Part shown: one piece after another, positions 1 to 35,505 of the stretch
How positions within the stretch are numbered: position 1 is the first letter of the stretch
How the letters are laid out: each line of letters starts with the position of its first letter
Assembly (NCBI GenBank): GCA_041192345.1
Contig: JBEEND010000001.1
Coordinates: forward strand, 87,068-151,067
DNA length: 64,000 nt
Direction: 5' to 3'
DNA from: Actinomycetota bacterium
Lineage (GTDB): Bacteria > Actinomycetota > Actinomycetes > S36-B12 > UBA5976
Translations under genes and position numbers: made by a program
The notes under the pieces: generated by a model
What the model saw: only the letters and a program-made list of their open reading frames with translations
Database searches by the model: none
Told to the model about the DNA's origin: nothing

Positions 1-819
1 AGTTTTAGAAACATAGTGCTGGACTACTTGTTCTCTGGTCCAAAATCCAGGACCACTTGTGACTTCCTGTGCCACTGGAATTTGGTTGCGCAATGTGTCG
101 CCCGCTTGGCTCCAGTAAACGAGTGAGATGGCCAAGTCAGAAATAGGGTCGCCAAGAGTGGACATCTCCCAATCCAGAACAGCAATAATCTCGCTAGTTT
201 TAGGATCCAAAATTACGTTATCTATCCGATAATCACCGTGCACAATGGCGGAAGGCAAGTTAGTTGGAAGTTTTGAAATCGCACCTTCAAGCCAAGTATG
301 GAGCTCTTCTATCTCTGCTAATTCCCGAGTTTTAGTTAATTGCCATTGCTCACCCCAGCGCTTAACTTGTCGCTGCAAATAACCCTCAGGACGACCTAGT
401 TGATCCAGTTCGGCTGCTACAGGATCAACGCGATGAAGATTTGCCAGAGTGTCAACTAAGTTTTGCGAAATCTCACTTGCTTGAACATTACTCAACGACA
501 TTGCAGTTTCAGCAGACTCGATAACCCGACCATCAACAAAGTCCATCAACATAAATTTTGAACCGATTATTGTTTCGTCATCGCAGAAACCTTGTGCCTT
601 GGGTGTTGGAAAGGAAACAGAATTTAAGCCAGATAAAACTCGGAACTCTCGGCCCATGTCGTGCGCCGATGGCATGATGTGGCCAAGTGGTGGTCGACGT
701 AACACCCAACTTGAACCGCTAGCATCGGTCAACTTATAGGAAATGTTTGAACGCCCTCCGGCTAACAAAGTTGTTTGCAACTTAGCGCTGTCATCTACTC
801 CAGAAATGTTTGACGACAT
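1..819 (-). CDS. APH-family phosphotransferase (acyl-CoA-dehydrogenase-associated kinase-like protein), 3' end beyond window edge
   Basis: It is absent from the ORF track because it runs off the window. My minus-strand translation from the ATG at 819-817 reads MSSNISGVDDSAKLQTTLLAGGRSNISYKL. Further on it contains IVHGDYRIDNVILD and AVLDWEMSTLGDP, the APH/choline-kinase catalytic and metal-binding motifs. An in-frame stop lies upstream at 844-846. Confidence 0.75.
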   Translation of the reverse strand, partial: MSSNISGVDDSAKLQTTLLAGGRSNISYKLTDASGSSWVLRRPPLGHIMPSAHDMGREFRVLSGLNSVSFPTPKAQGFCDDETIIGSKFMLMDFVDGRVIESAETAMSLSNVQASEISQNLVDTLANLHRVDPVAAELDQLGRPEGYLQRQVKRWGEQWQLTKTRELAEIEELHTWLEGAISKLPTNLPSAIVHGDYRIDNVILDPKTSEIIAVLDWEMSTLGDPISDLAISLVYWSQAGDTLRNQIPVAQEVTSGPGFWTREQVVQHYVSKT

Positions 820-866
820 CCACTGCAATAGCGAATCAAGTGTTAACCCAGTAGGGTCGGTAGGAC

Positions 867-2078
867 TCAAGCCCAGTCCCCAGGCAACTTGCCAGCCTGT
901 GAGTGACGCACGGAACGCCGCGAGATTGACCAGCGATGAACTTCTGAAGGACCATCGTAAATTCGAAACGGTCGGATGTCTCGGAAAATATGTGCAATTG
1001 GAAGTTCACTTGAAGTTCCTTTTGCACCGCATAACTGCATCGAACGGTCAACAATTCTAAATGTTGCCTCGGCAACGAAAGTTTTTGCAATCGATGTCTC
1101 CGCGCGGGCTGGCAAACCTTGGTCAAGAACCCAAGCAGCCCGATGAATCAAAGCGCGGCACGCGGCTATGTCAATTTCATTGTCGGCGATCATCTGTTGC
1201 GCCATACCAAGTGAGGCGAGTTCGGTGCCAAACATTGGTCGTGACGCTGCGTAGTCAACAGCAGATTCGTGTGCCCGACGCGCAGCGCCTAGCCAGCGCA
1301 TGCAATGTGTCAGGCGAGCGGGACCTAGACGAACTTGAGCATTTACAAAACCCTCATCGATCTGGCCAAGCACGGCCTCATCTGAAACTTCACAGTTCGT
1401 AAAGTCCACAACTCCATGCCCACCCGTAAAAGCGCTATCTAAAGTGTCGAGACTGCGAACCACTTTCATTCCAGGATTATCCGCGCCAACTAAGAACATA
1501 GTTGCGCCACCAGACGTCTTTGCCATCACTATTGAAAATGCCGCGCCATCTGCTCCAGTTATGAGCCACTTGTTTCCATTAATAACCCAACCTGAGCCAG
1601 ACTTTTGCGCTGAAGTGGAAAGTAAATTGGGATCTGCGCCAGCACCTGGACTTGGCTCGGTCATTGCAAAGGAAGACCTCACTTCACCTTTAGCCAGGGG
1701 TGCCAGATATTTAGCGCGCTGGGCTGGTGTTGCAATTTTGTTTAACAACAATATGTTGCCTTCATCTGGCGCTGCGCAGTTAAGTGCAGTTGGTCCCAAC
1801 AAACTGCGACCACTTTCTTCCAGGATTACAGCTTGCGCACAATGATTAAATCCATGACCACCAAACTCTTTTGGCGCAGTGGGAGCAAAAACATTTGCTG
1901 CTCGAGCTTTATTCTGCAACGTGATTCGCAAATCTGGATTTATTCCGTGTGAGTCTGGATTTAATTCTGGCTCATGTGGAATAACTTCAGCATTAATGAA
2001 ACTGCGAACGCGCAATGCGAACTCTTTAACTTGTGGGTCTTTATCAAACTCGTAACTCATGTGCGCAATCCATAACAC
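867..2078 (-). CDS. acyl-CoA dehydrogenase family protein
   Basis: 403-aa ORF with the overall ACAD layout. It is paired with an APH-like kinase downstream, a common actinobacterial arrangement. A GGAAAGAG-like RBS lies about 10 nt before the ATG at 2078; MSYEF at 2060 is an alternative start. Confidence 0.8.
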   Translation of the reverse strand: MLWIAHMSYEFDKDPQVKEFALRVRSFINAEVIPHEPELNPDSHGINPDLRITLQNKARAANVFAPTAPKEFGGHGFNHCAQAVILEESGRSLLGPTALNCAAPDEGNILLLNKIATPAQRAKYLAPLAKGEVRSSFAMTEPSPGAGADPNLLSTSAQKSGSGWVINGNKWLITGADGAAFSIVMAKTSGGATMFLVGADNPGMKVVRSLDTLDSAFTGGHGVVDFTNCEVSDEAVLGQIDEGFVNAQVRLGPARLTHCMRWLGAARRAHESAVDYAASRPMFGTELASLGMAQQMIADNEIDIAACRALIHRAAWVLDQGLPARAETSIAKTFVAEATFRIVDRSMQLCGAKGTSSELPIAHIFRDIRPFRIYDGPSEVHRWSISRRSVRHSQAGKLPGDWA

Positions 2079-2153
2079 TAGGTCTCTTTCCCTAGATCTT
2101 ATCTTCAGTTATGCTTAAAGAAATTGCTACTGGCCAGTTAGGGTTGCCTCCAA

Positions 2154-2801
2154 ATGACAGATTCCTCACCAAAAGGATCACTGACTTTTGAAGCGCTTAC
2201 ACGGTTACGCGATGAAATCATTCAGGGGAAAATTCGTCCCAATGAAAGATTGATTGCGGCAGATTTAGCGGAGCGATTAAACACCTCGCGCACGCCAATT
2301 CGAGAAGCCCTGCAATTACTTGAGGCTGAACAGTTGGTAGTTGCAGCAAAGCGTGGATATGTGGTCCGCGAACACACTAAAGAAGAAATTGTTGAGATTT
2401 ATGAAGTCCGCGCTGCCCTTGAGGGAATGGCGGCTCGATTAGCAGCCCAGAAAACTGGCACCAGCGCTTATAAGGAAATTGAAGCAATTGGAGCTCATAG
2501 GGACTCATTAATTGCCTCGAATGATCGCAAACTTATTGTTGATTTGAATGATGAATTCCATGCTGCCATTTTTTCGGCCTGTGGCAATTCCAGACTTGAT
2601 CGAATTAACCGAAGCAATAGTCAGCATTTTTTCAACTATCGAATTTCTGAGTTGTACACCAAAGAAGAAACCAAGATCTCAATTAAAGGTCACGCATTAA
2701 TTCTCAAAGCAATTAAAAATCATGATGGAGATCAAGCAGACTCCGCTGCGCAAGAGCATGTTCGGGAAGCACTGAAAGTAACGCTACTTAAGTTGCGTTA
2801 A
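2154..2801 (+). CDS. GntR family transcriptional regulator (FadR/FCD subfamily)
   Basis: N-terminal winged HTH (RLIAADLAERLNTSRTPIREALQLLEAEQLV) followed by an all-helical FCD-like C-terminal domain. 215 aa. Confidence 0.85.
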   Translation: MTDSSPKGSLTFEALTRLRDEIIQGKIRPNERLIAADLAERLNTSRTPIREALQLLEAEQLVVAAKRGYVVREHTKEEIVEIYEVRAALEGMAARLAAQKTGTSAYKEIEAIGAHRDSLIASNDRKLIVDLNDEFHAAIFSACGNSRLDRINRSNSQHFFNYRISELYTKEETKISIKGHALILKAIKNHDGDQADSAAQEHVREALKVTLLKLR

Positions 2802-2808
2802 AAACGAT

Positions 2809-3558
2809 TTAAGTATTGCCGTTTATAGTTATGCCACCATCAACAACGATGGTTTGGCCAGTTATGTAACTTGAGTCCGCGGACATCAAGAATTTAACTA
2901 CTTTTGCAATTTCACTAGGCTCAGCCAAGCGCTGTTGGGGAATTCGAGCAGTCAGAGCTGCTTCCGATAGCCTGCCGTCTTTAATGCCGCCAGCCACCAT
3001 CTCGGTGCGAGTCCAACCTGGGGCAACTGCGTTCACGCGAATGTCGCGGTTAGCCCATTCCAAACCAAGAGTTCGAGTCAAACCTTCAAGCCCAGCTTTG
3101 GCTGCGGTGTAACCCGCGCGGCCAGCAATCCCAACGCTGCCAGCTATTGAGCCAACATTAACTATTGTGGCGCCAGCAGATTTAACTAAGTCAGAGTAGG
3201 CAGCTTGGCTGCATTTGAAAACGCCACTTAAGTCAGTATCGATTACGGTATTCCAATCGTTCTCGCTTAGGACTTCTGATTCATCGCGAATAATTACGCC
3301 AGCGCAGTTGATTAAGGAATCAAGAGAATCGAACTCAGTTCGCATCTCGGTAAAAACTGCATCTATCGAAGCGCGATCACGCACATCCATGACTTTGCCA
3401 ACTGCTTTTCCAGGCCCTGTTGCTAGTCCTGCAACGGCGCTGGCAATAGCAGTTGCGTCGCGACCGGTAATAACTACATTCCAACCATCGCTGATTAGCT
3501 CTTGGCTAATTGCTAAACCAATTCCTTTAGCGCCACCAGTTATCAGAGCAGTTTTCAC
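2809..3558 (-). CDS. SDR family oxidoreductase
   Basis: TGGAKGIG Rossmann motif, NAAG-like segment and a YTAAK (YxxxK) catalytic motif. GTG start at 3558, only 6 nt after the upstream stop. Confidence 0.85.
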
Positions 3559-3564
3559 AATTAG

Positions 3565-4824
3565 CTACTTGCGGTAACTGCGAACAACAAATGGCTCCAT
3601 AGCGATTTCTGGGGTGCGACCAGCAATGATGTCCACTAGCGCAGCACTTGAACCACTTGCCATAGTCCAACCCATGTGGCCATGACCAGTGTTGTAGTAA
3701 AGATTTTGGTGCTTCTTACCTTTACCAATAATTGGAGGACCATCTGGTGTCATTGGACGCAAGCCAGCAGTCATTCGGCCGCCATCCCAATCAGCAGCAT
3801 CTGGCCAAAGTTCCTTAGCCGTTGAACGAATAGCTGAAAAATCTTCTGGTTTGTGTGACATATCAAAACCGGAAAATTGCGCAGTGGAAGACATCCGCAA
3901 TTGATTACCCATAGGTGACCAAGCAACTAGCGTTTTTTCATCGACGCCGCCAAGTTCTGGCGCAATGGATTTGTCTTTTAGATCAAAAGTCATGGAGAAA
4001 CCCTTGGCTGGATAAACCGGAAGGTCTTGCCCAACAGTGCGAGATAGGAACGGACTCCAAGCTCCCATAGCCAGCACGTAATTGTCTGCGGAAAGAAGTC
4101 CTTGGTCAGTTTGCAGCCCAATAACTCGATCACCATCAGCTACGAATGATTTTGCAGTAACACCAAGCTTGAACTCGACGCCTTTGCTAAGGAGAAGATC
4201 CGTTAGTTTCTGAGTGAATAACTCAGAGTTTCCGCTGCCATCATTAGGTGCATGAATTGCGCCCGCTAGTTCAACCTTTGAGTTTGCAAAAGCAGGGTCA
4301 ACAGCCGCCAGACCCTTCATATCTAATTGCTCAAGTTTTTGACCATTGTCAGTTAGTAATTTCATCTTGCCCATACCAAGTTCAAGTTCAGCAGCGTCTC
4401 GGTAGAGATAAAGCAAACCCTTGTCGACACCTTGGTAGTCAATGCCTTCAGCAAGTGCAATCTCATCTAATTTGGTTTGACTGTAATCACATAAGTGCAT
4501 TTTGGCCAAAGTGTTAATTGCAGCGCGCTCGGAAGTGCACTCTCGCATGAATTGTAAACCCCACCATAAAAAGCGAGGATTCAAAGTTGGTTTAACACGT
4601 ATTGAAGTCTTTTCACCAAGCAATGATTTAAATAGCATTTTTGGAGCAGCTGGTGATGCCCAGGCAAAGCAGTGTCCGGGCGCAATTAGTCCAGCGTTAA
4701 CCGAGGTCGCTTCCGATCCAACTGAGTTTGCCTTATCTACAACAACAACTTCATGACCTTCTTTAGAAAGGTAGTAAGCAGTTGTTACGCCGACGACTCC
4801 GCCACCAACAACGATTGTTTTCAC
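3565..4824 (-). CDS. FAD-dependent oxidoreductase, D-amino-acid dehydrogenase (DadA)-like
   Basis: N-terminus MKTIVVGGGVVGVTTAYYLSKEGHEVVVVDK shows the GxGxxG FAD fold. The 419-aa length and overall pattern are typical of DadA/DAO-family enzymes. Confidence 0.75.
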   Translation of the reverse strand: MKTIVVGGGVVGVTTAYYLSKEGHEVVVVDKANSVGSEATSVNAGLIAPGHCFAWASPAAPKMLFKSLLGEKTSIRVKPTLNPRFLWWGLQFMRECTSERAAINTLAKMHLCDYSQTKLDEIALAEGIDYQGVDKGLLYLYRDAAELELGMGKMKLLTDNGQKLEQLDMKGLAAVDPAFANSKVELAGAIHAPNDGSGNSELFTQKLTDLLLSKGVEFKLGVTAKSFVADGDRVIGLQTDQGLLSADNYVLAMGAWSPFLSRTVGQDLPVYPAKGFSMTFDLKDKSIAPELGGVDEKTLVAWSPMGNQLRMSSTAQFSGFDMSHKPEDFSAIRSTAKELWPDAADWDGGRMTAGLRPMTPDGPPIIGKGKKHQNLYYNTGHGHMGWTMASGSSAALVDIIAGRTPEIAMEPFVVRSYRK

Positions 4825-4869
4825 GCTGACTCCTAAGTTTTTCTACTTGAATCTATGGCTGATTAACCG

Positions 4870-5256
4870 TTATGGCAAGGCTGCAATTGCGGTAACTTCA
4901 ACGACTAGTCCTTCAATTAGTAACCCACATACGACAGTTGCGCGAGCCGGACGGTGATCTCCAAAGATTTCAGCCCAGGCCCTGTTGTATTCCGGCAAGT
5001 GCGCTAAGTCCGTTATGTATACCGAAGTAGATGCGATGTCATTTAAGGTCGCACCTTTTTCTGCAAGGATCACTTTGATTCGTCCTAGGATGTGCTTGGT
5101 CTGCTCATATGGATCATTTGGAGCAACGACGTTTGCCTCTGGATCGAGCGATACCTGTCCGGCTACAAAAACAAAACCATTTGCAACTGCGGCATTTGAG
5201 TAAGGCATGATTGCTGGGCCAAGTGAACTTGGATTGAATGTTTCGACGTTGCTCAT
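4870..5256 (-). CDS. ridA: RidA/YjgF family reactive-intermediate (imine) deaminase
   Basis: 128-aa ORF with a typical YjgF/RidA pattern (FVFVAGQVSLDP, ARATV, LIEGLVVEV). Confidence 0.8.
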   Translation of the reverse strand: MSNVETFNPSSLGPAIMPYSNAAVANGFVFVAGQVSLDPEANVVAPNDPYEQTKHILGRIKVILAEKGATLNDIASTSVYITDLAHLPEYNRAWAEIFGDHRPARATVVCGLLIEGLVVEVTAIAALP

Positions 5257-5284
5257 TATTTTCCTTTTTGTTTCCTAGTTAGAT

Positions 5285-6031
5285 CTAGACGATTCCACTG
5301 TAACTACGTGGAACTGTTGCGTTGTAGACATAGTTAATAAAGTTTGCCCAATCAAAGACGGGTAGGCCCGTGGCTTCTTCGATTGCCTTACTATACGGTG
5401 GCAAGTCGCTGCACTCCAACATAAATGCCCGGATGGCAGGATCACGCTTGATTGCATCTTTAGCAGCCTGGACAGATTCCATTCGCATTTTGTCTTCATC
5501 AAGAGTGCCTAATTCTTTCAAAATTACATCGTTGAAATGGTTGTAGGTTTCCATTCCTTGAATTGTTAATCGTGATGAATCAGTTATCCCTGCATTAGCA
5601 AGCAGGCCATCAGTGAGTGAGGCTGAGTTAGCAGTCAAAATACCAATGTGATGTTTGCTACCTAACATGTTTAACAACATTGGAATTTGCACCAAGCTCG
5701 TTAAGAAAACTGGAATGTTTACTTGACTAGCCACAAACTCTTGAAAGCCAGCCATAAAACCACAGTTGCCAGTTATCGCTCGCACACCTTCAGCTTCAAG
5801 TTTCTTGGCGGCGTCAGCCATAATTTGCGCATAATTTTCACCATTGCCACGCAGCACTTCCGCGCCGGAAACACCCTTCACAGATTCATAACGAACAGGA
5901 AAAGAGAAGGTCCCTGCGTTATTCAAATCACCTGGAATAAAAGGTATGTGCCACTCCGCACACAACATGCCAATTGCGTAACCGTAGGCAACTTGCCCCG
6001 TTCGAGCTTGGTAGATCACGGTGCCTCCCAA
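5285..6031 (-). CDS. Asp/Glu/hydantoin racemase superfamily protein
   Basis: 248 aa with two candidate catalytic Cys contexts (ITGNCGFM and MLECSDLPPY), as in two-base racemases and isomerases. Subfamily not resolved. Confidence 0.55.
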   Translation of the reverse strand: MGGTVIYQARTGQVAYGYAIGMLCAEWHIPFIPGDLNNAGTFSFPVRYESVKGVSGAEVLRGNGENYAQIMADAAKKLEAEGVRAITGNCGFMAGFQEFVASQVNIPVFLTSLVQIPMLLNMLGSKHHIGILTANSASLTDGLLANAGITDSSRLTIQGMETYNHFNDVILKELGTLDEDKMRMESVQAAKDAIKRDPAIRAFMLECSDLPPYSKAIEEATGLPVFDWANFINYVYNATVPRSYSGIV

Positions 6032-6144
6032 AGGCCCTTTTTGAATGCACTATTGCATGCAGTAATCATTCTTTGGCAAAAAAGTGCACAAGTCAAGGCT
6101 TTTACAACTTGCCAATGCTGGTTGGGGCGTGGAATAGTGCACAC

Positions 6145-7230
6145 ATGAGCATCTCTCGCTTCTTGCCAGACTTCGCCCCGATTGCGCCCTTTAGCCGCCT
6201 AAGTGAATCGGGAATTCTGGATTCTGGCTCGGCTCCAATGTCTGATGCTGCGGTAATTGAGGCGCTTCGCTACATGGTTTTAACTCGAGTTTTTGACGAC
6301 AAAGCAACAAGCATGCAACGACAAGGTCGGTTTGGAACTTTCTCTTCCGTTCGGGGGCAGGAAGCTTCTGTTGTCGGCGCAGCGACGGCGCTGGATCCAA
6401 AAAGAGACTGGATCGTTCCGCAGTATCGCGAATTTCCAGCCTTGATTCGTCACGGTTATCCAATGGAAAACTTTGCGCTTTATTTCATGGGCAATCCAAA
6501 AGGTGGAACTATTCCGCCGGAAGTAAATATGTTGCCGATGCAGATTTCTTTAGCTGCTCAAATTCCACAAGCAACTGGATTGGCCTGGGGATTAAAGATG
6601 CAAGGAGGTGAGGGAGTAGTCATTACCTTCTTTGGTGATGGCGCATCATCAGAAGGTGATTTCCACGAAAGTCTAAATCTTGCAGGAATTGTTAAAGCGC
6701 CAGTAATTTTCTTTCTGCAAAACAATGGTTGGGCAATTTCAACTCCGCGCGAATCACAGACTGCCGCACGTTCATTTGCAGAGCGCGCGATTGGTTACGG
6801 CGTTGAAGGCGTAATTGTCGATGGCAATGATTTACTTGCAGTCCACGAAGTTACCGCTAGCGCAGTGGCAAAAGCTCGCGCCGGTGGTGGACCAACATTA
6901 ATTGAATCTGTTACCTATCGAACCGGCGCACACAACACAGCTGATGATCCGTCTAAGTACATCGATCAACAAGAACTTGAGAAGTGGCAACAAAAGGATC
7001 CAGTTGTTCGGATAGAAAATTATCTGCGCAGTAAAGGTATTTGGAATGAAGAGCTTGCCAAGGAGATGCACGATAGCTGCGCCGAACAAGTAGATGCTGC
7101 AATGAATATCGCGCGTAACACCCCGCTTGCAACAAGTGATGCGCTATTTGATCATGTTTACGCCGAGCCACCACAGCGGATGTTGGATCAACAAGCTGAT
7201 TGGGCCAAGCGCAATGGCGGCGTCTTATGA
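6145..7230 (+). CDS. 2-oxoacid dehydrogenase E1 component, alpha subunit (TPP-dependent)
   Basis: TPP-binding motif GDGASSEGDFHESLNLAGIVKAPVIFFLQNNGWAIS. The track ORF starts at 5974, but that extension overlaps the divergent racemase-like gene, so I place the start at the ATG at 6145. Confidence 0.85.
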   Translation: MSISRFLPDFAPIAPFSRLSESGILDSGSAPMSDAAVIEALRYMVLTRVFDDKATSMQRQGRFGTFSSVRGQEASVVGAATALDPKRDWIVPQYREFPALIRHGYPMENFALYFMGNPKGGTIPPEVNMLPMQISLAAQIPQATGLAWGLKMQGGEGVVITFFGDGASSEGDFHESLNLAGIVKAPVIFFLQNNGWAISTPRESQTAARSFAERAIGYGVEGVIVDGNDLLAVHEVTASAVAKARAGGGPTLIESVTYRTGAHNTADDPSKYIDQQELEKWQQKDPVVRIENYLRSKGIWNEELAKEMHDSCAEQVDAAMNIARNTPLATSDALFDHVYAEPPQRMLDQQADWAKRNGGVL

Positions 7231-8210
7231 GCGAAAAAACAATGATTGAAGCAATCCGCGAATGCTTAACGCAAGAAATGCAAGAAGATAGCCGAGTTGT
7301 TGTAATTGGTGAAGATGTTGGCGTTCTTGGTGGCGTATTCCGCGCGACTGATGGACTGCAAGCTAAGTTCGGCAAAGATCGCGTTGTCGACATGCCACTT
7401 GCTGAAGGTGTGATTGTTGGATCAGGAATTGGATTAGCAATTAGTGGACTGCGTCCAGTTATTGAATTGCAGTTCCTTGGCTTTGGTCATCAAGCTTTTC
7501 ATCAAATCGGTCAGCAAGTTGCGCGGCTGCGATATCGATCACAGGGGCGACACTCCTTACCTTTAGTTATTCGCTCACCATTTGGTGGTGGCGTGCGAAC
7601 CCCTGAACTTCACTCTGATGCATTTGAAGCTTTCTACACCCACACCCCAGGCTTGAAAGTAGTTGCACCCGCGACTGCTTATGATGCAAAGGGGTTACTT
7701 GCAGAAGCAATGGCATGTGATGATCCAGTGCTATTTCTGGAACCGCTAAAGGGTTACCGCTTAACAAAAGATGAAGTTCCCGATGAGCGTTACCGAGTCC
7801 CGCTTGGCAAGTTGCGGATCGCGCAAGTTGGTACGGATGTAACTTTGATTGCTTGGTCGGCTGCAGTCAATGTTGCCCAGCGTGCCGCAGATGAATTAGC
7901 AGCCCAAGGCATCAGCGTGGAAGTGCTCGATTTACGTTCGCTTAATCCCTTGGACATACCTGGCATCAAAGAATCCGTAAGTAAAACTGGTCGAGTCGCA
8001 ATCTTGCACGAAGCTCCATTAACTGGGGGATTTGGTAGTGAACTGGTGGCAACTATTCAGCAAGAGTGTTTTTATGATTTGCAGTGCCCAATTATTAGAA
8101 TCTCTTCACCAGATACTCCATACCCACTTGGTGGCGTTGAAGATTTATACATTCCAGATGTTGATCGAGTTGTTTCGGAAGTTGGCGCCTTGGCCAGGAC
8201 CAGCGCATGA
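7227..8210 (+). CDS. 2-oxoacid dehydrogenase E1 component, beta subunit
   Basis: Transketolase-like pyrimidine-binding and C-terminal domains. The ATG at 7227 overlaps the E1-alpha stop (ATGA), which suggests translational coupling. Confidence 0.85.
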   Translation: MSEKTMIEAIRECLTQEMQEDSRVVVIGEDVGVLGGVFRATDGLQAKFGKDRVVDMPLAEGVIVGSGIGLAISGLRPVIELQFLGFGHQAFHQIGQQVARLRYRSQGRHSLPLVIRSPFGGGVRTPELHSDAFEAFYTHTPGLKVVAPATAYDAKGLLAEAMACDDPVLFLEPLKGYRLTKDEVPDERYRVPLGKLRIAQVGTDVTLIAWSAAVNVAQRAADELAAQGISVEVLDLRSLNPLDIPGIKESVSKTGRVAILHEAPLTGGFGSELVATIQQECFYDLQCPIIRISSPDTPYPLGGVEDLYIPDVDRVVSEVGALARTSA

Positions 8211-9439
8211 GCCAGATCGTTGATTACAAACTTGCTGACGTCGGCGAAGGAATCGCTGAAGCAGAAGTAATTGAGTGGCTCGTAGCAGTTGGCGATCTAG
8301 TCAGTGAAGATCAACCAGTAATTGTTGTTGAAACGGATAAGTCTCAAATTGAAATCCCAGCTCCAGTCTCAGGAAAAGTGATCGAACTATGTGTCGTTGC
8401 TGGTGACGTACTTGCTGTTGGATCCTCTCTGATGAAAATTGAAGCAAGTGGTGAAGTTTCCAATGACATTAGTGCGCACGCTTCGCCAGCAACTCCGTCT
8501 CCAATCGCAGTAACGACAAACGATAAATCAGATTCACCATCGACACCCGGCTCGCGTGCGACAAATGTTCGCCCGCTTGCCAGTCCAAGCACGAGGCGAC
8601 TAGCTGCCAGCCTTGGTGTGGTATTGGAGGATGTTTTAGGTTCAGGACCAAACGGTCAGATTACTTTCGAAGATATTCAGGCTGCCAGTGCAACAGCAGA
8701 ACCGACTACATCTCCAAAAGTTACGCCAATCGTTTTCGGACCGGGTGTAACCGTAATTCCACTTCGCGGTTTACGCAGGCAAATTGCTGCCAGCATGTCC
8801 CAGGCGCTAACGATTCCGCACATTTTGGAATTTAAGGAAATAGATGCCACAGCATTACTGGCTTTGCGAAGTGACTTAACGAAAGATTTCGAGGCGCAAG
8901 GACAAAAACTTTCTGTGACGCCTTTCTTAATGCGCGCTTGCGTGCTGGCACTTGCAAAACATAAAACATTTAATGCTCGCTTTGATTCTGAGGCTGCGGA
9001 AATTGCGCAATTTGAAAATGTGAACTTAGGTTTTGCAACTGCAACCGATGATGGGCTAATTGTTCCGGTGATTCAAAATGCCCAGAATCTTTCAGTAAAA
9101 GAACTTGCGCAGGAAACAGATAATTTAGTTGCCTTAGCAAAATCTCGGAAAGCATCGCTAGCGCAACTAAGTGGTGGCACATTTACGCTCACTAATTTTG
9201 GCTCCTTTGGCACTTGGCTCGGAACCCCAATTATTCATGCGCCAGAAGTTGCTATTGCTGGCTTTGGTCGAATCACAGAAAAAGTTTTAGCAGTTGACGG
9301 AATTCCAACAGTGCGGATGGTTTTGCCGATAGTTGTTGCCGCTGATCATCGGGTCAATGATGGCGCACATTTGGGTGCATTTGTTTCTGAAATTGCAGAC
9401 TTATTATTACGTCCACTCTCACTCCTAGAAAATAAGTAG
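8207..9439 (+). CDS. dihydrolipoamide acyltransferase E2 component
   Basis: Lipoyl domain with VETDKSQIEIP (lipoyl-lysine), an Ala/Pro/Ser linker, an E3-binding segment (ASPSTRRLAASLGV) and the catalytic DHRVNDG motif. The start overlaps the E1-beta stop by 4 nt. Confidence 0.9.
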   Translation: MSQIVDYKLADVGEGIAEAEVIEWLVAVGDLVSEDQPVIVVETDKSQIEIPAPVSGKVIELCVVAGDVLAVGSSLMKIEASGEVSNDISAHASPATPSPIAVTTNDKSDSPSTPGSRATNVRPLASPSTRRLAASLGVVLEDVLGSGPNGQITFEDIQAASATAEPTTSPKVTPIVFGPGVTVIPLRGLRRQIAASMSQALTIPHILEFKEIDATALLALRSDLTKDFEAQGQKLSVTPFLMRACVLALAKHKTFNARFDSEAAEIAQFENVNLGFATATDDGLIVPVIQNAQNLSVKELAQETDNLVALAKSRKASLAQLSGGTFTLTNFGSFGTWLGTPIIHAPEVAIAGFGRITEKVLAVDGIPTVRMVLPIVVAADHRVNDGAHLGAFVSEIADLLLRPLSLLENK

Positions 9440-9445
9440 GTAGTC

Positions 9446-10885
9446 GTGGTCGTTGGAGAAATGCCTTCATCAGTTGACTTACTTGTCATAGGCGGCGGCC
9501 CTGGTGGGTATGTTGCAGCAATAGCCGCTGCGCAATTGGGACGCAGCGTAGTTTTGGTTGACAGCAATGGCGAGGCCGGCTTGGGCGGCGTGTGTGTAAA
9601 CGTTGGCTGCATCCCGTCTAAAGCGTTAATTGAACTCGCACATGCGACACACAGCATTACTGATTGGGCAGCGCGTGGTATGAAAATCTCCGCGCAACCA
9701 AGTGTTGACATGAAAGATTTTCAAACTTGGAAAAATGAAGTGGTGACTGGACTAAATGGTGGCGTTCGACAATTACTTAAAACTGCCGGTGTTGAAGTCC
9801 GACAAGGCTTTTTTAGATTTACTCGCAAAGATCAAGGTGTTCTAGAGTTTGGCGAGGCGCCCCCAACTCACATCCAATTTAATAACGCCATCATTGCAAC
9901 AGGTTCTCGCCCCACCATGATTGCCGAATTACCACATGACGGCAGCCGCATCCTAGATTCATCAGACGTGTTGTCACTGGAGGTTTTGCCAAAAACCATT
10001 GCGATTGTTGGTGCTGGCTACATTGGCGTGGAACTGGGCACTGCTCTTGCGCAACTTGGCTCGACAGTTTTCATGATCGAGGCTGCCGATCGAATTCTGC
10101 CAGCACTGCCAGCAACATTAGTTGCGCCAGTTGCCCGTAGGCTCGCAGAAATTGGTGTTGAAGTCCGCACAAAAACTACAGTTGTCTCAGACGATGGTAA
10201 ATGTCTGACAGTGACAACTGACGGTGTTGCTTCACAAATAGCTGTGGATTATGTTGTGGTGGCAATTGGTCGCACGCCAAACACCGATGACTTGGGTCTT
10301 GAAGTAATAGGCGTTAAACCGAATGCTCGTGGAATTCTAGAAGTTGGCGCAGATCTTTTGGTCACTCCGAAGATCGCAGCAATCGGAGACATTACGCCGG
10401 GACCCGCGTTGGCACATAAAGCAAGCGCTGAAGCTCACGTTGCAGCTGAAGTTTTGAGCGGTCATGCAGCGCGCTTTGATCCAACTGCAATCCCAGCGGT
10501 AATTTTTAGTGATCCAGAAATTGCTATGACTGGACTAACGCTGGAAGAAGCAAGCGCAGCTGGTTACTCAGCGCAATTTGCCATGTTCCCAATGGCAGCA
10601 TCTGGACGGGCATTTACTTTGGGCGACAAAGCTGGTTTTGCACAATTGGTTCACACAACAGATGGCGTTGTTTTAGGCGCTCAAATTGTTGGACCCCGCG
10701 CCTCGGAATACATTGCTGAAGTTACTTTGGCAATTGAAATGGGCGCAAGTTTGCAAGATTTAGCTGACACCATTCACCCACATCCATCGATGAGTGAGAC
10801 TTTGCCCGAAGCTGCTCGTGTGGGCCTGGGTTTTCCAATTCATGTTTCACCAAAACGTCAACGTAATAACTCAGAAGGGAAGTAA
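9446..10885 (+). CDS. lpd: dihydrolipoyl dehydrogenase E3 component
   Basis: GGGPGGY FAD motif, redox-active disulfide GGVCVNVGCIPSK, and the C-terminal HPHPSMSE dimerisation motif. Start is GTG 9446 or ATG 9461. Confidence 0.9.
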   Translation: MVVGEMPSSVDLLVIGGGPGGYVAAIAAAQLGRSVVLVDSNGEAGLGGVCVNVGCIPSKALIELAHATHSITDWAARGMKISAQPSVDMKDFQTWKNEVVTGLNGGVRQLLKTAGVEVRQGFFRFTRKDQGVLEFGEAPPTHIQFNNAIIATGSRPTMIAELPHDGSRILDSSDVLSLEVLPKTIAIVGAGYIGVELGTALAQLGSTVFMIEAADRILPALPATLVAPVARRLAEIGVEVRTKTTVVSDDGKCLTVTTDGVASQIAVDYVVVAIGRTPNTDDLGLEVIGVKPNARGILEVGADLLVTPKIAAIGDITPGPALAHKASAEAHVAAEVLSGHAARFDPTAIPAVIFSDPEIAMTGLTLEEASAAGYSAQFAMFPMAASGRAFTLGDKAGFAQLVHTTDGVVLGAQIVGPRASEYIAEVTLAIEMGASLQDLADTIHPHPSMSETLPEAARVGLGFPIHVSPKRQRNNSEGK

Positions 10886-10894
10886 CATATACAA

Positions 10895-12217
10895 ATGCGT
10901 ATTACCGAAGCCGACAAGAAGTTCCTTAAAGCTGACATTGAGGTACTTAAGGCCCCAGAACTAGATTCCCCGCCAGCACAGCGATTACCTGAAGTAATCG
11001 AAACCGTTTCAAGGATGTTGCTCGAGATCGAGAAAAACGGCATTGATGCAGTCAAGAAGTACTCCCGTGATCTTGATAAGTGGGATAAAGATTTTGAACT
11101 TAGCGCTGCTGACTTAGCAAAAACTGGTGACACTTTGTCGCCAGAACTACGCAAGGCACTAGAAATTGGTTCAGAGCGCACCAAGATGTTTGCAGTTGAA
11201 ACTCGTAAGCACCTGGTTGATTTCGAATTAGAAACAACTCCAGGTGTGGTTCTTGGTCAGAAATATATTCCAATCGAGCGCGTTGGCGCATACTTACCTG
11301 CTGGTAACTTCCCAATTCTTTCCTCTGCATTCATGACGGTTGGGGTTTCAAAAGTTGCTGGCGTACCAATGACGATGGCTTGCACACCACCGATGTCAGA
11401 GTCTGGCGGTAATCCTGCTGTGCTTTACTCGGCATACCTATCTGGTGTTGATCGCACATTTATCATTGGTGGCGTTCAAGCATTAGCAGCTATGACTTTT
11501 GGACTACTTGGCGAAAAGCCAGTGGACATTCTTGTTGGCGCTGGAAATGCTTATGTTGCGGAAGCAAAGCGTCAACTTTTTGGTCGCGTTGGAATTGACT
11601 TACTTGCTGGTCCATCGGAAGTTGCGGTTATTGCCGATGACACTGCTGATGCCCGGATGGTTGCTTGCGACTTACTTGGTCAAGCAGAACACGGCATGCA
11701 GTCTCCAGCCTCACTTGTTACAACATCTCGCGAATTAGGTATGGCAGTTATTCTGGAAGTGAAGCGTCAACTCGCAGAACTTTCTACGGAATACATTGCC
11801 GGCCCAGCTTGGCGTGACTATGGCACGGTTTATTTAGTTAAGACTCCAGATGATGCCATTGAAGTTATGGATACTTTGGCGCCAGAGCACTTGGAAATCT
11901 TGACTGGTGACAATGACTATTACTTAAAGCACTTGAAGAACTATGGCTCACTGTTTATCGGAGAATGGTCCACAGTTTCTTACGCTGATAAGGGAACAAC
12001 TGGAACTAACCACGTGCTTCCAACTGGTGGCGGCGCTAAGTACACATCCGGCTTGTCAGTTGGTCGTTTCTTAAAGCCAGTTACTTACCAAACCTCAACT
12101 CGCGAATCCACTATGCAAGTTGCTCCTCATAACTCAGCAATTGCAGGGTTTGAGGGTATGTCCGCTCATAAGGCAACTGCTGACCTGCGAATTGAGTTAC
12201 TAAACGCTGGAAAGTAA
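10895..12217 (+). CDS. histidinol-dehydrogenase-family (HisD-like) NAD-dependent dehydrogenase, paralogue outside a his operon
   Basis: 440 aa with HisD-family signatures (LLGQAEHG, APEHLEI, GTNHVLPTGG). It lies immediately after the E3 gene and no other his genes are nearby. Confidence 0.75.
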   Translation: MRITEADKKFLKADIEVLKAPELDSPPAQRLPEVIETVSRMLLEIEKNGIDAVKKYSRDLDKWDKDFELSAADLAKTGDTLSPELRKALEIGSERTKMFAVETRKHLVDFELETTPGVVLGQKYIPIERVGAYLPAGNFPILSSAFMTVGVSKVAGVPMTMACTPPMSESGGNPAVLYSAYLSGVDRTFIIGGVQALAAMTFGLLGEKPVDILVGAGNAYVAEAKRQLFGRVGIDLLAGPSEVAVIADDTADARMVACDLLGQAEHGMQSPASLVTTSRELGMAVILEVKRQLAELSTEYIAGPAWRDYGTVYLVKTPDDAIEVMDTLAPEHLEILTGDNDYYLKHLKNYGSLFIGEWSTVSYADKGTTGTNHVLPTGGGAKYTSGLSVGRFLKPVTYQTSTRESTMQVAPHNSAIAGFEGMSAHKATADLRIELLNAGK

Positions 12218-12226
12218 ATCCAAAAA

Positions 12227-12266
12227 CTAAAGCCCGCTCTCAGATTTGGGAGCGGGCTTTAGTTTT
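12227..12266. terminator. bidirectional rho-independent terminator between the HisD-like gene and kup
   Basis: Perfect hairpin CTAAAGCCCGCTC / GAGCGGGCTTTAG (12227-12239 and 12250-12262) with A-run and T-run flanks. It sits between convergent genes. Confidence 0.8.
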
Positions 12267-22139: not shown

Positions 22140-22613
22140 ATGAGGTTAAGCATGTTTAAAAAGGGTTTAAAAAGAGCAACGCTTTTGGACAACAGGGGAG
22201 CGGCGGCAGTTGAATTCGCAATAATTTTTCCATTGCTGATCCTCTTAATAGTTTTGCTGATTGATTTTGGCCGGCTTTTCTTTGTCCAAATTAGTCTAAA
22301 CGCGGCAAGCAGGGAAGCAGCTCGTTGGAGTTCGCTGTCAGTGGCTCCTTTAGACGTAGCCAATCGCACAAATGCTTCTTCACCTGGAGTTGCGGTTATG
22401 TCCTCGCTGAGTGCCTCCCAATTAGTAGTGACTTCAGTTACAACCTGTACCCCAACGCTTACCAACGAATCAACTGAGGTGACAGTAGCGATTAATTTTA
22501 AATGGATCACCCCAGGAGGACTCGTGAAGATTTTCTCACCTAATTCCACACTTGCAAACAGCGGCGGCATGCAGCTGCAAAGTAAAGGACAGATGTTATG
22601 CTCCGCTTTCTAA
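22140..22613 (+). CDS. tadE: TadE-like pseudopilin
   Basis: N-terminus NRGAAAVEFAIIFPLLILLIVLLIDFGRLFF matches the TadE family, with a prepilin-peptidase-type G/A site. The start could be MFKKG at 22152. Confidence 0.8.
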   Translation: MRLSMFKKGLKRATLLDNRGAAAVEFAIIFPLLILLIVLLIDFGRLFFVQISLNAASREAARWSSLSVAPLDVANRTNASSPGVAVMSSLSASQLVVTSVTTCTPTLTNESTEVTVAINFKWITPGGLVKIFSPNSTLANSGGMQLQSKGQMLCSAF

Positions 22614-23815
22614 AACGCCGCCAATTCGCAAGATCGATATCTGATGAAGCGGGCGCCACTACTGCTATTTTCGCTATTGTTGTCCTGGTTGGGGTTATGG
22701 CAGGCACATTTGCCTTAGTTGTTGATGCTGGTCAATTGTTTCTTGAGCGCAGGGTTGTGCAAAATGTTGCCGATGCATCTGCTGGGTACTTAACTCAGAG
22801 TTGCGCCACGGGGGGAATTTGCGCACCAACGATTCCAAGTTCCTATACCGAAAATAATTCACCTGATTCGAATACTGAAATTATTGAAATTTGTGGAACC
22901 CCCGAAGGCTTTGATCCGTGCACAGATTTAGTCGGTGACATTAGAGATTGCCTCACACCAACAACTGCTTTGGCTGATTCGAATTTCGTCAGGGTACGTT
23001 CGCAAACGCTAACGATTTCTAATAAATCCGCACTGTCACCAACATTTGCTCGATTATTTGGAGCAAGTTCGGATGATGGAAATTGGACTATACGTGGATG
23101 CTCGCAAGGGATTTGGGGTGGACCTTCATCAATGAAGGTAACTACGCCACTTGCCATATCTATTTGCAATTGGGAACCACCGACGAGCTCTTCCGTAGGC
23201 ACACCCAAAGTGGTTCTACCATGGTCTCTGAGTGCGAGTGGCCCGTGCTCAATAGTGGATTTGAATGGGAAACTTTTCAGCAAAGCTGGAACTCATAAAG
23301 GTGTGGCACCAGTTAGCATTCCAGGTATGGATCTCAATTGCATAGAGGGAACCACTTTAAGCGTCGGAGAAAAAATTATATATGCAAATGGTGCCAGCGC
23401 GCCAAAACTATTGTGTGACGGTATTGGCCGAAAGCTTAAATCGCTTATCACCGCGGCAGAGCCAATCTACATACCTATTTACGGTGCTTCTGAAAATGTG
23501 AATGGTAATTTAGAACTCACAGTGATTTCATTTGTGCGATTCAAGTTAACTGCGTATACCGTTAACCCACCACTCTCAACTGGATGCAAAAGCAGCAACA
23601 ACTGTGACGTAAATTGGGATTCTGAGAATCCTATTTTTGACCCTGCAGATCCTCTTTATGGTGGCACGACCTGGGTTGACGCGGACGCGGCATGTAATGG
23701 TAAGGATTTATGCGTGGCGGGTGAGTTCCTAGAGGGTACACCACCTTCAGGTAATATTTCGGGAGGCTCAGACGCTCCATCACTTGGCCCTCTTGCCTTT
23801 AATTTGATTCCTTAG
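22598..23815 (+). CDS. TadG/TadE-G-like pilus assembly protein with large Cys-rich C-terminal domain
   Basis: N-terminus EAGATTAIFAIVVLVGVMAGTFALVVDAGQLFLERRVVQNVADASA matches the Flp-pilus TadE/G-like N-terminal domain. The following roughly 330 aa contain 14 Cys. Confidence 0.65.
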   Translation: MLRFLKRRQFARSISDEAGATTAIFAIVVLVGVMAGTFALVVDAGQLFLERRVVQNVADASAGYLTQSCATGGICAPTIPSSYTENNSPDSNTEIIEICGTPEGFDPCTDLVGDIRDCLTPTTALADSNFVRVRSQTLTISNKSALSPTFARLFGASSDDGNWTIRGCSQGIWGGPSSMKVTTPLAISICNWEPPTSSSVGTPKVVLPWSLSASGPCSIVDLNGKLFSKAGTHKGVAPVSIPGMDLNCIEGTTLSVGEKIIYANGASAPKLLCDGIGRKLKSLITAAEPIYIPIYGASENVNGNLELTVISFVRFKLTAYTVNPPLSTGCKSSNNCDVNWDSENPIFDPADPLYGGTTWVDADAACNGKDLCVAGEFLEGTPPSGNISGGSDAPSLGPLAFNLIP

Positions 23816-23825
23816 GAGGGTACAA

Positions 23826-24419
23826 ATGAAAACTACAACCAGATACTTAATCATTGCCGCAATAATTGCCAGCGTAGTTGCGGTTTTGGTATTTCGCACA
23901 AATTCAAATTTAGATGAAGTTCCGATAACAGCCCCAACGGGTGTTAGCTTACAATCCGGAACTCCGGAGCCATCACCTACAGAAATTTTGGAAGGACCGC
24001 TGTCAGTACCCTCAGGAAAAATTGCAATTTCGGTTGAGCTATCTGATCCAGCTAAAGTTGGGAGTTTCCTGCGGCCAGGTTTGTTCATTACAGTTTTTAA
24101 CACCGTGGCCGCCATTGAAACTGCTGGCGATATCCCAGCTGAAACTGCTGGCGATATTCCAGTTCGAGAAACGCGGGTGCTTCTCACGAAAGTTCAAGTA
24201 TTAGGTATAGCTGGTTACACGGCTGTGGAAGAAGTAGATGCCACAATAACCGAAACCACAATGTTCTTGGTGACATTAGCAGTTACTCAGAATGAAGCGG
24301 AGCGGCTGGTACACGCCATTCAAACTGGAACCCTCTACTTCGGATTATTAAGCGCTGACACTCAAGTCATTCCAGGCGCTGGTGTAAATGACGAAACCAT
24401 ATTCTTAGGAGTAAATTAA
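23826..24419 (+). CDS. cpaB: CpaB/RcpC family Flp pilus assembly protein
   Basis: N-terminal TM anchor (YLIIAAIIASVVAVLVF) and a C-terminal RcpC-like pattern (VLLTKVQVLGIAG...FLVTLAVTQNEAERLVHAIQTGTLYFGL). Confidence 0.7.
   Translation: MKTTTRYLIIAAIIASVVAVLVFRTNSNLDEVPITAPTGVSLQSGTPEPSPTEILEGPLSVPSGKIAISVELSDPAKVGSFLRPGLFITVFNTVAAIETAGDIPAETAGDIPVRETRVLLTKVQVLGIAGYTAVEEVDATITETTMFLVTLAVTQNEAERLVHAIQTGTLYFGLLSADTQVIPGAGVNDETIFLGVN
24117..24164 (+). repeat. 24-bp tandem duplication inside cpaB (ETAGDIPA/ETAGDIPV)
   Basis: GAAACTGCTGGCGATATCCCAGCT is followed directly by GAAACTGCTGGCGATATTCCAGTT. Two mismatches, in frame. Confidence 0.9.
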
Positions 24420-28616: not shown

Positions 28617-28620
28617 ATAA

Positions 28621-30026: not shown

Positions 30027-30050
30027 ATCCACAGAAGTTCGGTGGATTTT
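30027..30050 (+). terminator. weak hairpin after tadV
   Basis: ATCCAC-N9-GTGGAT followed by TTTT. Short stem, low confidence. Confidence 0.3.
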
Positions 30051-30083
30051 GCAAATAATTCCTTTTTAGTTATGATAAAAGTC

Positions 30084-30104
30084 CTTGAGTCCACCCGACT
30101 CAAG
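30084..30104. promoter_or_regulatory. HAIR (HspR-associated inverted repeat) operator upstream of dnaK
   Basis: CTTGAGT-N7-ACTCAAG is an exact match to the published HAIR consensus. It lies 76 nt upstream of the dnaK ATG, and hspR is encoded at the end of the same operon. Confidence 0.9.
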
Positions 30105-30179
30105 GTATCTGATGCCGTAGGTTTCAGGTGCGGTGAGTCGGGTATGACTAAGGCGAACACCCTTATAGGAGGAAACAAA

Positions 30180-32563: not shown

Positions 32564-32594
32564 TCAATAATTTGTAAAGCAGAAGGGAGACACC

Positions 32595-33897: not shown

Positions 33898-33899
33898 TT

Positions 33900-34661: not shown

Positions 34662-34662
34662 G

Positions 34663-35109: not shown

Positions 35110-35143
35110 ATAAGCATTTGTGTGACACTGACGTAATTATCAA

Positions 35144-35467: not shown

Positions 35468-35505
35468 AGCGCAACTTGTAATCCATTTGTATTGCTTACG
35501 AGTAG

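Follow-up and report, generated by a model that had tools for sequence, protein, structure and literature searches.

What pathway is encoded where genes for a racemase-like protein, a D-amino acid dehydrogenase and a complete 2-oxoacid dehydrogenase complex stand back to back around one short spacer? The question is raised by the first 12,217 nucleotides of a 64,000-nucleotide stretch of an Actinomycetota genome (GenBank assembly GCA_041192345.1, contig JBEEND010000001.1, positions 87,068 to 151,067; the whole stretch is called the window here), in which two divergent operons adjoin genes for a GntR/FCD regulator, an ACAD-family (acyl-CoA dehydrogenase) enzyme and a kinase of the aminoglycoside phosphotransferase (APH) family. 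From the gene families, their signature residues, their linkage and the conservation and positions of a shared operator, all of which can be read from the DNA, we infer what each enzyme does, which way the flux runs, which protein is the repressor and what kind of substrate is used. The probable answer, in our judgement, is a GntR-repressed route that takes an amino acid, in either enantiomeric form, to a 2-oxoacid and on to an acyl-CoA, which would then be processed by a short-chain dehydrogenase/reductase (SDR) and, in some lineages, by enzymes of the ACAD10/11 type.

The order, strands and families of the genes, as drawn in an earlier note on this DNA, agree with our map of open reading frames (ORFs) and with the Pfam and NCBIfam matches, and the catalytic motifs are intact in the translations of all enzymes of the locus. 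In the proposed route, an alpha-amino acid would be taken up, in larger genomes through a Liv-type ATP-binding cassette (ABC) transporter or an MHS-type transporter of the major facilitator superfamily (MFS). A two-cysteine protein of the Asp/Glu/hydantoin racemase superfamily (PRK07475 clade; 5285–6019, minus strand) would interconvert the L and D forms without pyridoxal phosphate (PLP), and a DadA-type FAD-dependent D-amino acid dehydrogenase (3565–4824, minus strand) would oxidize the D form to a 2-imino acid. Hydrolysis of this imine to the 2-oxoacid would be sped by a RidA-family imine/enamine deaminase (4870–5256, minus strand), and the divergently encoded E1alpha-beta/E2/E3 complex, which is of the Firmicutes type, would convert the 2-oxoacid to an acyl-CoA. 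A FabG-like SDR, encoded by the last gene of the racemase operon (2809–3558, minus strand), would act on a hydroxy or oxo group of the acyl thioester or of its precursor. In this lineage, the APH kinase would further phosphorylate a 4-hydroxyacyl-CoA, from which the ACAD-like enzyme would eliminate phosphate to give a 2-enoyl-CoA. The divergon had been described as self-contained, which does not hold fully here, since the window encodes no transporter. The 113-bp spacer given for it (6032–6144) is correct for the longest racemase ORF, which reaches TTG 6031; the start is most likely GTG 6019, because a GGGAGG Shine-Dalgarno sequence precedes it and homologues begin with MIYxAR, and with this start the spacer becomes 6020–6144.

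To see how far these genes travel together, we used a genome scan with one genome per species, which gave 42 loci, plus four further loci. Twelve window proteins were mapped onto the loci (numbered with the letter L), which were collapsed into 17 lineage groups with racemase-like proteins less than 80% identical between groups. The gene most often linked to that for the racemase-like protein was DadA (15 of the 17 lineages), followed by the GntR/FCD gene (14), RidA (13), E1alpha/E1beta (10) and the SDR gene (also 10, with 53–63% identical orthologues directly after DadA). Less frequent companions were the ACAD gene and a Liv-type binding protein (6 lineages each), the APH gene (5) and an MHS-type MFS transporter (3), and a gene for a HisD-like dehydrogenase was linked in a single lineage; several of the missing partners are accounted for by contigs that are truncated. 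One co-directional 8-gene operon with the order E1alpha-E1beta-E2-E3-racemase-RidA-DadA-SDR is seen in Nocardioides, Aeromicrobium and a Mycobacterium metagenome-assembled genome (MAG) (L032–L037, L042, L046), and five Liv-type ABC-transporter genes come after it. The proposal that racemase, DadA, RidA and 2-oxoacid dehydrogenase form a unit is thus upheld across Actinomycetota by the linkage of the racemase-like, RidA, DadA and SDR genes to the complex in 10 of the 17 lineages, and orthologues scattered in unrelated contexts were not what the comparison across these lineages revealed.

The strongest comparative argument comes from loci in which the complex is replaced. In L035, a Nocardioides locus without E1, E2 and E3, the racemase, RidA and DadA genes are directly followed by genes for a glyoxalase-fold protein and for a 1168-aa IOR-family 2-oxoacid:ferredoxin oxidoreductase (NF009589, 1382 bits), and the latter is also found near the module in Blastococcus. 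Because an IOR-type enzyme replaces the complex in two lineages, the conversion of a 2-oxoacid to an acyl-CoA would itself belong to the pathway. These observations bear directly on a competing explanation, namely that only chance has put an ordinary housekeeping complex for pyruvate or branched-chain 2-oxoacids beside unrelated D-amino-acid genes. Annotation in the style of KEGG would indeed name the four genes a pyruvate dehydrogenase complex, and a complete pyruvate dehydrogenase (PDH) has been counted in 48 of 92 Nanopelagicales isolate genomes (PMC12817590), a count in which the present cluster could be what was seen. Against it stand the co-directional 8-gene operon in distant genera, the operator that the complex shares with the racemase and GntR genes, the loss of the complex together with RidA and the SDR in L022, and the IOR-type enzyme that takes the same place in other lineages, so that we strongly disfavour a chance neighbourhood and give it almost no weight.

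Within the Nanopelagicales (acI), the freshwater group to whose MAGs the nearest records belong (racemase protein 95–98% identical), the module decays stepwise. RidA is gone in the group with 85–89% identity (within L009–L021), for which reason we take its step to be dispensable. In L022 (8531–14878), the E1/E2/E3, RidA and SDR genes are gone and the HisD-like, racemase, DadA, GntR, ACAD and APH genes are kept, together with the operator. One close record, L006 (CAMBGF010000052.1), is labelled "MAG: Bifidobacterium breve"; its racemase is 98% and its other cluster proteins are 93–98% identical to those of the window, and either a wrong taxonomic label or a contaminated bin seems to be the cause.

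A second line of evidence for a common regulon lies in the spacer between the two operons. A 14-bp imperfect palindrome, ATGCACTATTGCAT (6045–6058), had been singled out as a candidate operator, and it turned out to be part of a conserved 20-bp element, TGAATGCACTATTGCATGCA (O1, 6042–6061), that matches TGCATGCA-N4-TGCATGCA at 15 of 16 scored positions and covers approximately +1 to +20 of the racemase transcript. A degenerate second copy (O2, 6126–6145, 11/16) overlaps the -10 element and the start of E1alpha. When this model (20 bp, 16 scored positions, a match requiring at least 13/16) was used to search 785 kb comprising the window and the related loci, 78 matches were found, versus 2.65 expected from shuffled sequence, and nearly all of them sit at the starts of E1alpha, racemase, transporter-binding-protein and GntR genes. 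Besides the Nanopelagicales, the operator occurs in the high-GC genera and families Nocardioides, Mycobacterium, Rhodococcus, Nocardia, Blastococcus, Streptosporangiaceae and Nocardiopsaceae; O1 is kept in all Nanopelagicales loci and has counterparts at equivalent positions in distant genera. In the spacer alignment, the conserved form adjoining the racemase gene reads TGCATGCA-N4-TG(C/T)ATGCA, the E1alpha start codon of the 68–73% group is directly adjoined by a second copy in inverted orientation, and L023–L027 carry a perfect or near-perfect copy at the position of O2. On the strength of this comparison we take the 20-bp element to be a real operator.

The candidate for its binding partner is the GntR/FCD protein of the FadR subfamily (2154–2801, plus strand; PF00392 and PF07729). 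Five distant loci (L033, L034, L036, L037, L044) have the operator upstream of their GntR gene, and since a site ahead of the one conserved regulator gene usually marks autoregulation, the protein is likely to be the operator binder and an autoregulated repressor that recognizes TGCATGCA-N4-TGCATGCA. A promoter scan found exactly two promoter-like sites in the divergent spacer. One is directed towards the racemase operon (TTGACT, 17 nt, AAGAAT; 6068–6096, minus strand), and O1 lies just downstream of its -10 element; the other faces the E1alpha operon (TTGCCA, 18 nt, TG-AATAGT; 6109–6138, plus strand), with an extended -10 that ends 6 nt before ATG 6145. This -10 places the start of transcription at or next to the start codon, so that the E1alpha mRNA is probably leaderless, and no Shine-Dalgarno sequence was seen before the start at 6145. 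The arrangement of promoter-like sites and operators fits repression by occlusion: in the window, the repressor would cover the racemase transcript start through one strong site, and the E1alpha -10 and leaderless start through one degenerate site.

A further repeat in this spacer, AGTGCACA, had also been proposed as a pair of operator sites. It is present as reported at 6083–6090 and 6136–6143, and nowhere else in the 64 kb (3.09 occurrences would be expected for the whole window), but it does not form a conserved operator pair. The first copy falls inside the spacer of the promoter-like site of the racemase operon and is not conserved even in relatives with 92–99% identical proteins (GCGGAC in L005 and L006), where the alignment shows a conserved -35 (CTTGAC) and an unconserved promoter spacer; the second copy is contained in O2. 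Comparison with close relatives therefore rules this repeat out as a repeated operator. As a regulatory design, the proposed arrangement resembles the HypR regulon of Streptomyces coelicolor for L-hydroxyproline, which likewise joins a FadR-subfamily GntR/FCD autorepressor to a D-amino acid intermediate and its dehydrogenase; that regulon has the operator CTNTGC(A/C)ATGTCAC, an epimerase of the proline racemase family and a three-subunit dehydrogenase, and it includes no 2-oxoacid dehydrogenase complex (PMC6608401).

How well do the individual proteins support the assigned steps? The racemase-like protein matches NF005679 (PRK07475), to which NCBIfam gives the name "hypothetical protein", at 272 bits, and PF01177 at 33.8 bits (cut-off 31), and its Cys90 (GNCG) and Cys207 (ECSD) are invariant. 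A sequence search of the PDB returned no relative. Its AlphaFold model (pLDDT 85) matched members of the Asp/Glu/hydantoin racemase superfamily at a probability of 1.0, a TM score of about 0.6 and at most 20% identity, with about equal matches to arylmalonate decarboxylase and to hydantoin, aspartate, glutamate and allantoin racemases, and a weak match to the cysteate racemase CuyB was found as well (E 1.7e-4). Membership of the superfamily is established by the two-domain fold and the two cysteines. That the protein racemizes amino acids is suggested by its constant pairing with DadA and RidA. The DadA protein matches NF001933 over its full length (residues 1–418) at 383.4 bits, barely above the cut-off of 383, and also matches PF01266; its FAD-binding GxGxxG is present as GGGVVG at residue 7. 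RidA (PF01042) has the arginine of the PAR motif, and the SDR (PF13561/PF00106) has NCAG and YTAAK motifs and could play a role like that of LvaD or act as a 3-hydroxyacyl-CoA dehydrogenase.

This half of the locus follows the logic of dadRAX in Pseudomonas aeruginosa (dadA, the RidA-family PA5303 and dadX), where an L-amino acid is likewise converted to a 2-oxoacid via the D-isomer by a racemase, DadA and RidA. The dadRAX system uses a PLP-dependent racemase, DadX, and an Lrp-type regulator, DadR, and has no linked 2-oxoacid dehydrogenase. Here, in contrast, the racemase is a PLP-independent superfamily member, the regulator is of the GntR/FCD type, and a full E1/E2/E3 set, an SDR and an ACAD10/11-type pair are added. 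The window contains a second member of the racemase superfamily (50143–50955; PF17645, arylmalonate decarboxylase/maleate isomerase type), which is divergent from a class-V aminotransferase gene (48996–50129) and is adjoined by genes for an MFS transporter and a xanthine/uracil-type permease.

The complex itself comprises E1alpha (6145–7230; PF00676, with the GDG...NN thiamine-diphosphate motif), E1beta (7227–8210; PF02779 and PF02780), whose start overlaps the E1alpha stop in ATGA, the E2 dihydrolipoyl acyltransferase (8207–9439; lipoyl PF00364, E3-binding PF02817 and catalytic PF00198 domains, ETDK and DHRVNDG motifs) and the E3 dihydrolipoyl dehydrogenase (9446–10885; TIGR01350 at 441 bits, cut-off 409; CVNVGC and HPHPSMSE), all on the plus strand. 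E1alpha scores 422 bits with TIGR03181 (cut-off 411). Against structures in the PDB, all three subunits lean towards a Firmicutes PDH rather than the branched-chain 2-oxoacid dehydrogenase (BCKDH): E1alpha reaches 272 bits with Geobacillus PDH versus 212 with human BCKDH, and E1beta 341 versus 315 with Thermus BCKDH; for the catalytic domain of E2 the scores are 130 versus 121, 114 and 109 with the bovine, Listeria and Mycobacterium tuberculosis BCKDH proteins. These margins are too small for similarity to solved structures to separate PDH from BCKDH, and it therefore fixes no substrate. By family, the complex is a Firmicutes-type unit resembling pdhABCD and not an orthologue of the mycobacterial Bkd E2; in Actinomycetota, the usual PDH E1 is of the homodimeric AceE type. 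The dedicated E3 had been counted as unusual. It is a standard part of pdhABCD in Bacillus and of bkd operons in Bacillus and Pseudomonas, so that this part of the earlier argument for novelty falls away.

The resemblance to PDH opens the way to a rival reading, in which L-alanine is converted via D-alanine to pyruvate and a dedicated PDH yields acetyl-CoA, making the locus a counterpart of dadA-ridA-dadX in Pseudomonas. E1alpha, E1beta and E2 each score best with Geobacillus PDH, E1alpha passes TIGR03181, and the trio of DadA, RidA and racemase is dadAX logic. The score margins over BCKDH just given are small, however; TIGR03181 presumably also takes in mycobacterial BkdA, Bacillus PDH accepts branched-chain 2-oxoacids, and catabolism of alanine offers no role for the SDR, which is conserved, or for the ACAD10/11-type pair and Liv-type transporter. 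We consider alanine an improbable substrate on balance.

Branched-chain or short aliphatic amino acids are a second candidate. In this case the locus would be an operon of the bkd type, with racemase and DadA standing in for the usual leucine/valine dehydrogenase or transaminase, and the SDR would be a 3-hydroxy-2-methylbutyryl-CoA dehydrogenase. Both pdhABCD of Bacillus subtilis and the bkd operons of Bacillus and Pseudomonas share with the window a heterotetrameric E1alpha-beta, an E2 and their own E3 in one operon, and bkd operons also couple the complex to an enzyme that deaminates amino acids. The difference lies in the deamination, which here would proceed through racemase, DadA and RidA and not through an NAD-dependent leucine/valine dehydrogenase or a transaminase. 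Further points in favour are the linked ABC binding protein, which is most similar to Leu/Ile/Val-binding proteins, the dedicated E3, the Glyoxalase_4 (methylmalonyl-CoA-epimerase-like) gene in L035, and a gene for a Leu/Val-type dehydrogenase near the Blastococcus locus. Nevertheless, the catalytic domain of E2 is further from the BCKDH E2 proteins of M. tuberculosis and Listeria than from PDH E2, genes for isovaleryl-CoA or methylcrotonyl-CoA were not found nearby, nor were any leucine/valine catabolic genes seen near the complex, and the ACAD10/11-type pair, the iron-dependent alcohol dehydrogenase and aldehyde dehydrogenase of Microbacterium and the HpsN-like gene remain unexplained. This reading is unlikely, in our view.

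What distinguishes the window from both schemes is the pair of genes beyond the regulator. The ACAD-family gene (867–2078, minus strand; likely start ATG 2060; Pfam ACAD domains) had been read as a generic next dehydrogenation step, which does not agree with its residues. Its best PDB matches are the mycobacterial ACAD 4hr3 and ACAD11 (2wbi, 8v3u). Features specific to ACAD10/11 and LvaC are a catalytic Asp for the usual Glu, an HCMR motif and an Arg 8 residues upstream of it (PMC12440821), and all three signatures are present: the Asp lies in YDGPSE at residue 374, in place of the usual ACAD Glu, and the HCMR motif and the upstream Arg, which serve phosphate binding, lie in RLGPARLTHCMR (residues 250–261). 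Directly downstream is the gene for the APH-family kinase (1–880, minus strand), of which the N-terminal ~290 aa are encoded before the gene runs off the window, its start codon not being fixed; the HGDxxxxN motif (HGDYRIDN) and DWE are present, and a full-length orthologue (L010:14731–15819) gives matches to the kinase domain of ACAD11 (8v3v, 170 bits), to 9o56 and to 3dxp. Bacterial APH/ACAD pairs phosphorylate 4-hydroxyacyl-CoA and then eliminate phosphate to give 2-enoyl-CoA (PMC11342911). Judged by these signatures, the two proteins are predicted to be a split 4-hydroxyacyl-CoA kinase and 4-phosphoacyl-CoA phosphate-lyase.

The same kind of APH-family kinase and signature ACAD is found in the lva system of Pseudomonas putida (LvaD, LvaA, LvaC) and in mammalian ACAD10 and ACAD11, and an SDR is present as well (PMC11342911, PMC12440821). 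In the window, kinase and ACAD are separate genes and not fused, and the acyl-CoA synthetase LvaE and LvaB are lacking; here the acyl-CoA would come from oxidative decarboxylation of a 2-oxoacid derived from an amino acid. Three separate lineages have the pair, or else just the kinase, linked to the module: Nanopelagicales, a Micromonospora MAG, where the link is on the same strand as racemase, RidA and DadA (in L028 it lies within one strand), and Blastococcus, where it follows directly after the SDR. This suggests that a 4-hydroxy group is present on, or is added to, the acyl-CoA of these lineages. One specific version of the route, which we put forward tentatively as possible rather than probable, would accordingly start from a hydroxylated or oxo amino acid, pass via its D-isomer (by DadA and the PRK07475 protein, which would stand for a new family of PLP-independent racemases) to a 4-hydroxy- or 4-oxo-acyl-CoA and, through the ACAD10/11-type step, enter beta-oxidation, with the HpsN-like enzyme of acI, of a new specificity, as a second entry; if true, it would be the first physiological role of bacterial ACAD10/11 homologues in amino acid catabolism. 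In the spacer between the GntR and ACAD genes of the 70% Nanopelagicales group (L001 13834–13945; L024 9414–9510), a different inverted repeat is found (GAGCATAGC-N5-GCTATGCTC in L001), which may be a separate operator of the ACAD-APH genes; no counterpart was recognized in the window spacer (2079–2153).

The last gene of the plus-strand operon (10895–12217) encodes an NAD- and Zn-dependent dehydrogenase that had been called a HisD paralogue and a component of the regulon. The family assignment to HisD/HpsN stands, but the protein is nearer to HpsN than to HisD and is not a standing part of the module. Its closest PDB entries are the HpsN structures 8v35 (372 bits) and 8wwe (330 bits), with HisD structures at 225–236 bits; it passes TIGR00069 at 412 bits, this being a domain-level model. 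The Zn ligands (Gln, His, Asp, His), the catalytic Glu-His pair and the sulfonate-contacting Lys353 align with HpsN of Cupriavidus pinatubonensis (8v35) in the motifs GQAEH, EHLE, ADKG and SAH, and after the Zn-binding Asp the protein shares a D-K pair with both HpsN enzymes, where Brucella HisD has D-Y. A housekeeping hisD as leading explanation was rejected on the higher HpsN scores, on D-K versus D-Y and on the occurrence of the clade as an extra copy in Streptomyces and Gordonia loci. A Pfam scan of the window's larger ORFs found no histidine-biosynthesis domains.

The alternative of C3-sulfonate catabolism takes the HpsN similarity at face value: the enzyme would oxidize dihydroxypropanesulfonate (DHPS) or cysteinolate, cysteate would undergo racemization and oxidation to sulfopyruvate, and the complex would decarboxylate the latter to sulfoacetyl-CoA. 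Besides the HpsN scores and the retained Lys, the weak CuyB match of the racemase and the finding that HpsN homologues also oxidize L-cysteinolate to cysteate (PMC12814064) point this way. In HpsN, however, His126 of the G-R-Y-A/S-H motif binds the sulfonate (PMC11382572), and where both solved HpsN proteins have this motif the window protein has G137-N-F-P-I141, so that the Zn-capping His126 is missing; 120 close homologues have PAG[RNQ]FP[IL] at this place. The Pfam scan likewise found no Xsc, SuyAB, CuyA or sulfite-exporter families, nor any other sulfo-lyase family of a sulfonate pathway, among the larger ORFs of the window. Of the 17 lineages with the module, 16 lack the HisD-like gene, and its neighbour in Arthrobacter is not Xsc. 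The missing motif and missing sulfonate genes weaken the case for a bona fide HpsN, and a sulfonate pathway strikes us as highly improbable.

By its motifs, the protein rather represents a third type within the HisD/HpsN family, and the enzyme is predicted to carry out a four-electron alcohol-to-acid oxidation, probably of a 2-amino or 2-hydroxy primary alcohol to the matching acid. The gene starts 9 nt after E3 with no terminator between, and is probably co-transcribed with E1–E3; its linkage in one lineage only marks it as an addition specific to Nanopelagicales. It encodes the most conserved protein of the locus (96–99% amino acid identity to L005–L022, where its neighbours have 68–93%), which we attribute to unusually strong purifying selection and not to recent transfer, because third-codon identity is only slightly above that of the neighbouring genes. 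Members of this actinobacterial clade in Arthrobacter, Streptomyces and Gordonia are 62–72% identical and stand in varied gene contexts; throughout the clade the motif reads PAG[RN]FP[IL]. In Arthrobacter (L047, 9001–14561), the gene is accompanied by genes for a LysR regulator, a PRK08199-type thiamine-diphosphate enzyme (not Xsc) and an aldehyde dehydrogenase resembling succinate-semialdehyde dehydrogenase, so that an alcohol-to-acid dehydrogenase again lies beside a 2-oxoacid-decarboxylating enzyme. In Streptomyces and Gordonia (L048 13096–18015; L049 1–4444), a further HisD-family paralogue lies a few kb from the clade member, in a conserved cluster of cupin, alpha/beta-hydrolase, HisD-like, SDR and HpcH/HpaI-aldolase genes with a LacI regulator.

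Which substrate, then, does the module serve? Two kinds of amino acid come into question, neutral aliphatic ones and hydroxylated ones from which a 4-hydroxyacyl-CoA would arise. The binding protein most like Leu/Ile/Val-binding proteins and the methylmalonyl-CoA-epimerase-like gene speak for the former, the ACAD10/11-type pair and an operon for an iron-dependent alcohol dehydrogenase, an aldehyde dehydrogenase, an MFS transporter and an SDR beside the Microbacterium module speak for the latter, and the PDH similarity of the complex hints at alanine. Other accessory genes include an arginase-family gene in two acI lineages and a proline-racemase-family gene in one (L001/L023/L027), an OCD gene and a second DAO gene in Rhodococcus, and SIS-domain and GNAT genes in Nocardia. 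We attempted to derive the substrate from such genes and abandoned the attempt, as the clues diverge between lineages.

Several observations weigh against the proposed route as a whole. The literature searched holds no published account of the cluster or of experiments on its enzymes or regulator. The racemase-like protein is a remote member of its superfamily and could be an isomerase or epimerase of a substrate that is not an amino acid, and the role given to the SDR is a guess. The operator half-site departs from the GT/AC core usual for the FadR subfamily. In 11 of the 17 lineages, no ACAD and APH genes lie within 10 kb, and no operator was found in the GntR-ACAD spacer of the window or of the other Nanopelagicales loci, so that the ACAD-APH genes may belong to another regulon. 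We nevertheless hold to the GntR-repressed route through the D-isomer as the probable function.

Each part of the locus has a known counterpart (dadA-ridA-dadX, pdhABCD or bkd, lva and ACAD10/11, HpsN, HypR), and no description of their combination, of the operator or of a characterized member of the racemase clade was found in the literature searched. No other bacterioplankton of fresh waters is as abundant as the Nanopelagicales, whose metabolism has been read almost wholly from genomes. The automatic names that the genes would receive ("pyruvate dehydrogenase", "histidinol dehydrogenase", "acyl-CoA dehydrogenase" and "aminoglycoside phosphotransferase") could distort inferences on central carbon metabolism and histidine prototrophy. 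The cluster offers a testable handle on the use of D- and L-amino acids from dissolved organic matter by streamlined and soil Actinobacteria, a genomic context, and hence a screening strategy, for a racemase-superfamily clade without a characterized member, and a well-defined GntR/FCD operator for experiments.

A few further features of the window may be noted. The GC content of the locus equals that of the remaining window. A hairpin with a perfect-looking 20-bp stem (12223–12266) closes the plus-strand operon; it separates the HisD-like gene from the convergent kup gene and is probably a bidirectional terminator. Farther along, there is a Tad/Flp pilus set (22140–29526) that comprises TadE, RcpC/CpaB, a CpaE-like ATPase, CpaF and a pair of TadB/C-like proteins, one with a fused VWA domain; dnaK-grpE-dnaJ and a copy of groEL come next (30042–38063). 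The GC content falls to 0.42 at 24001–26000 and at 60001–64000, from about 0.47–0.49 elsewhere, and the latter segment, in which genes for glycosyltransferase, DUF4422 and GSCFA proteins are found, is possibly an island for cell-surface glycans.

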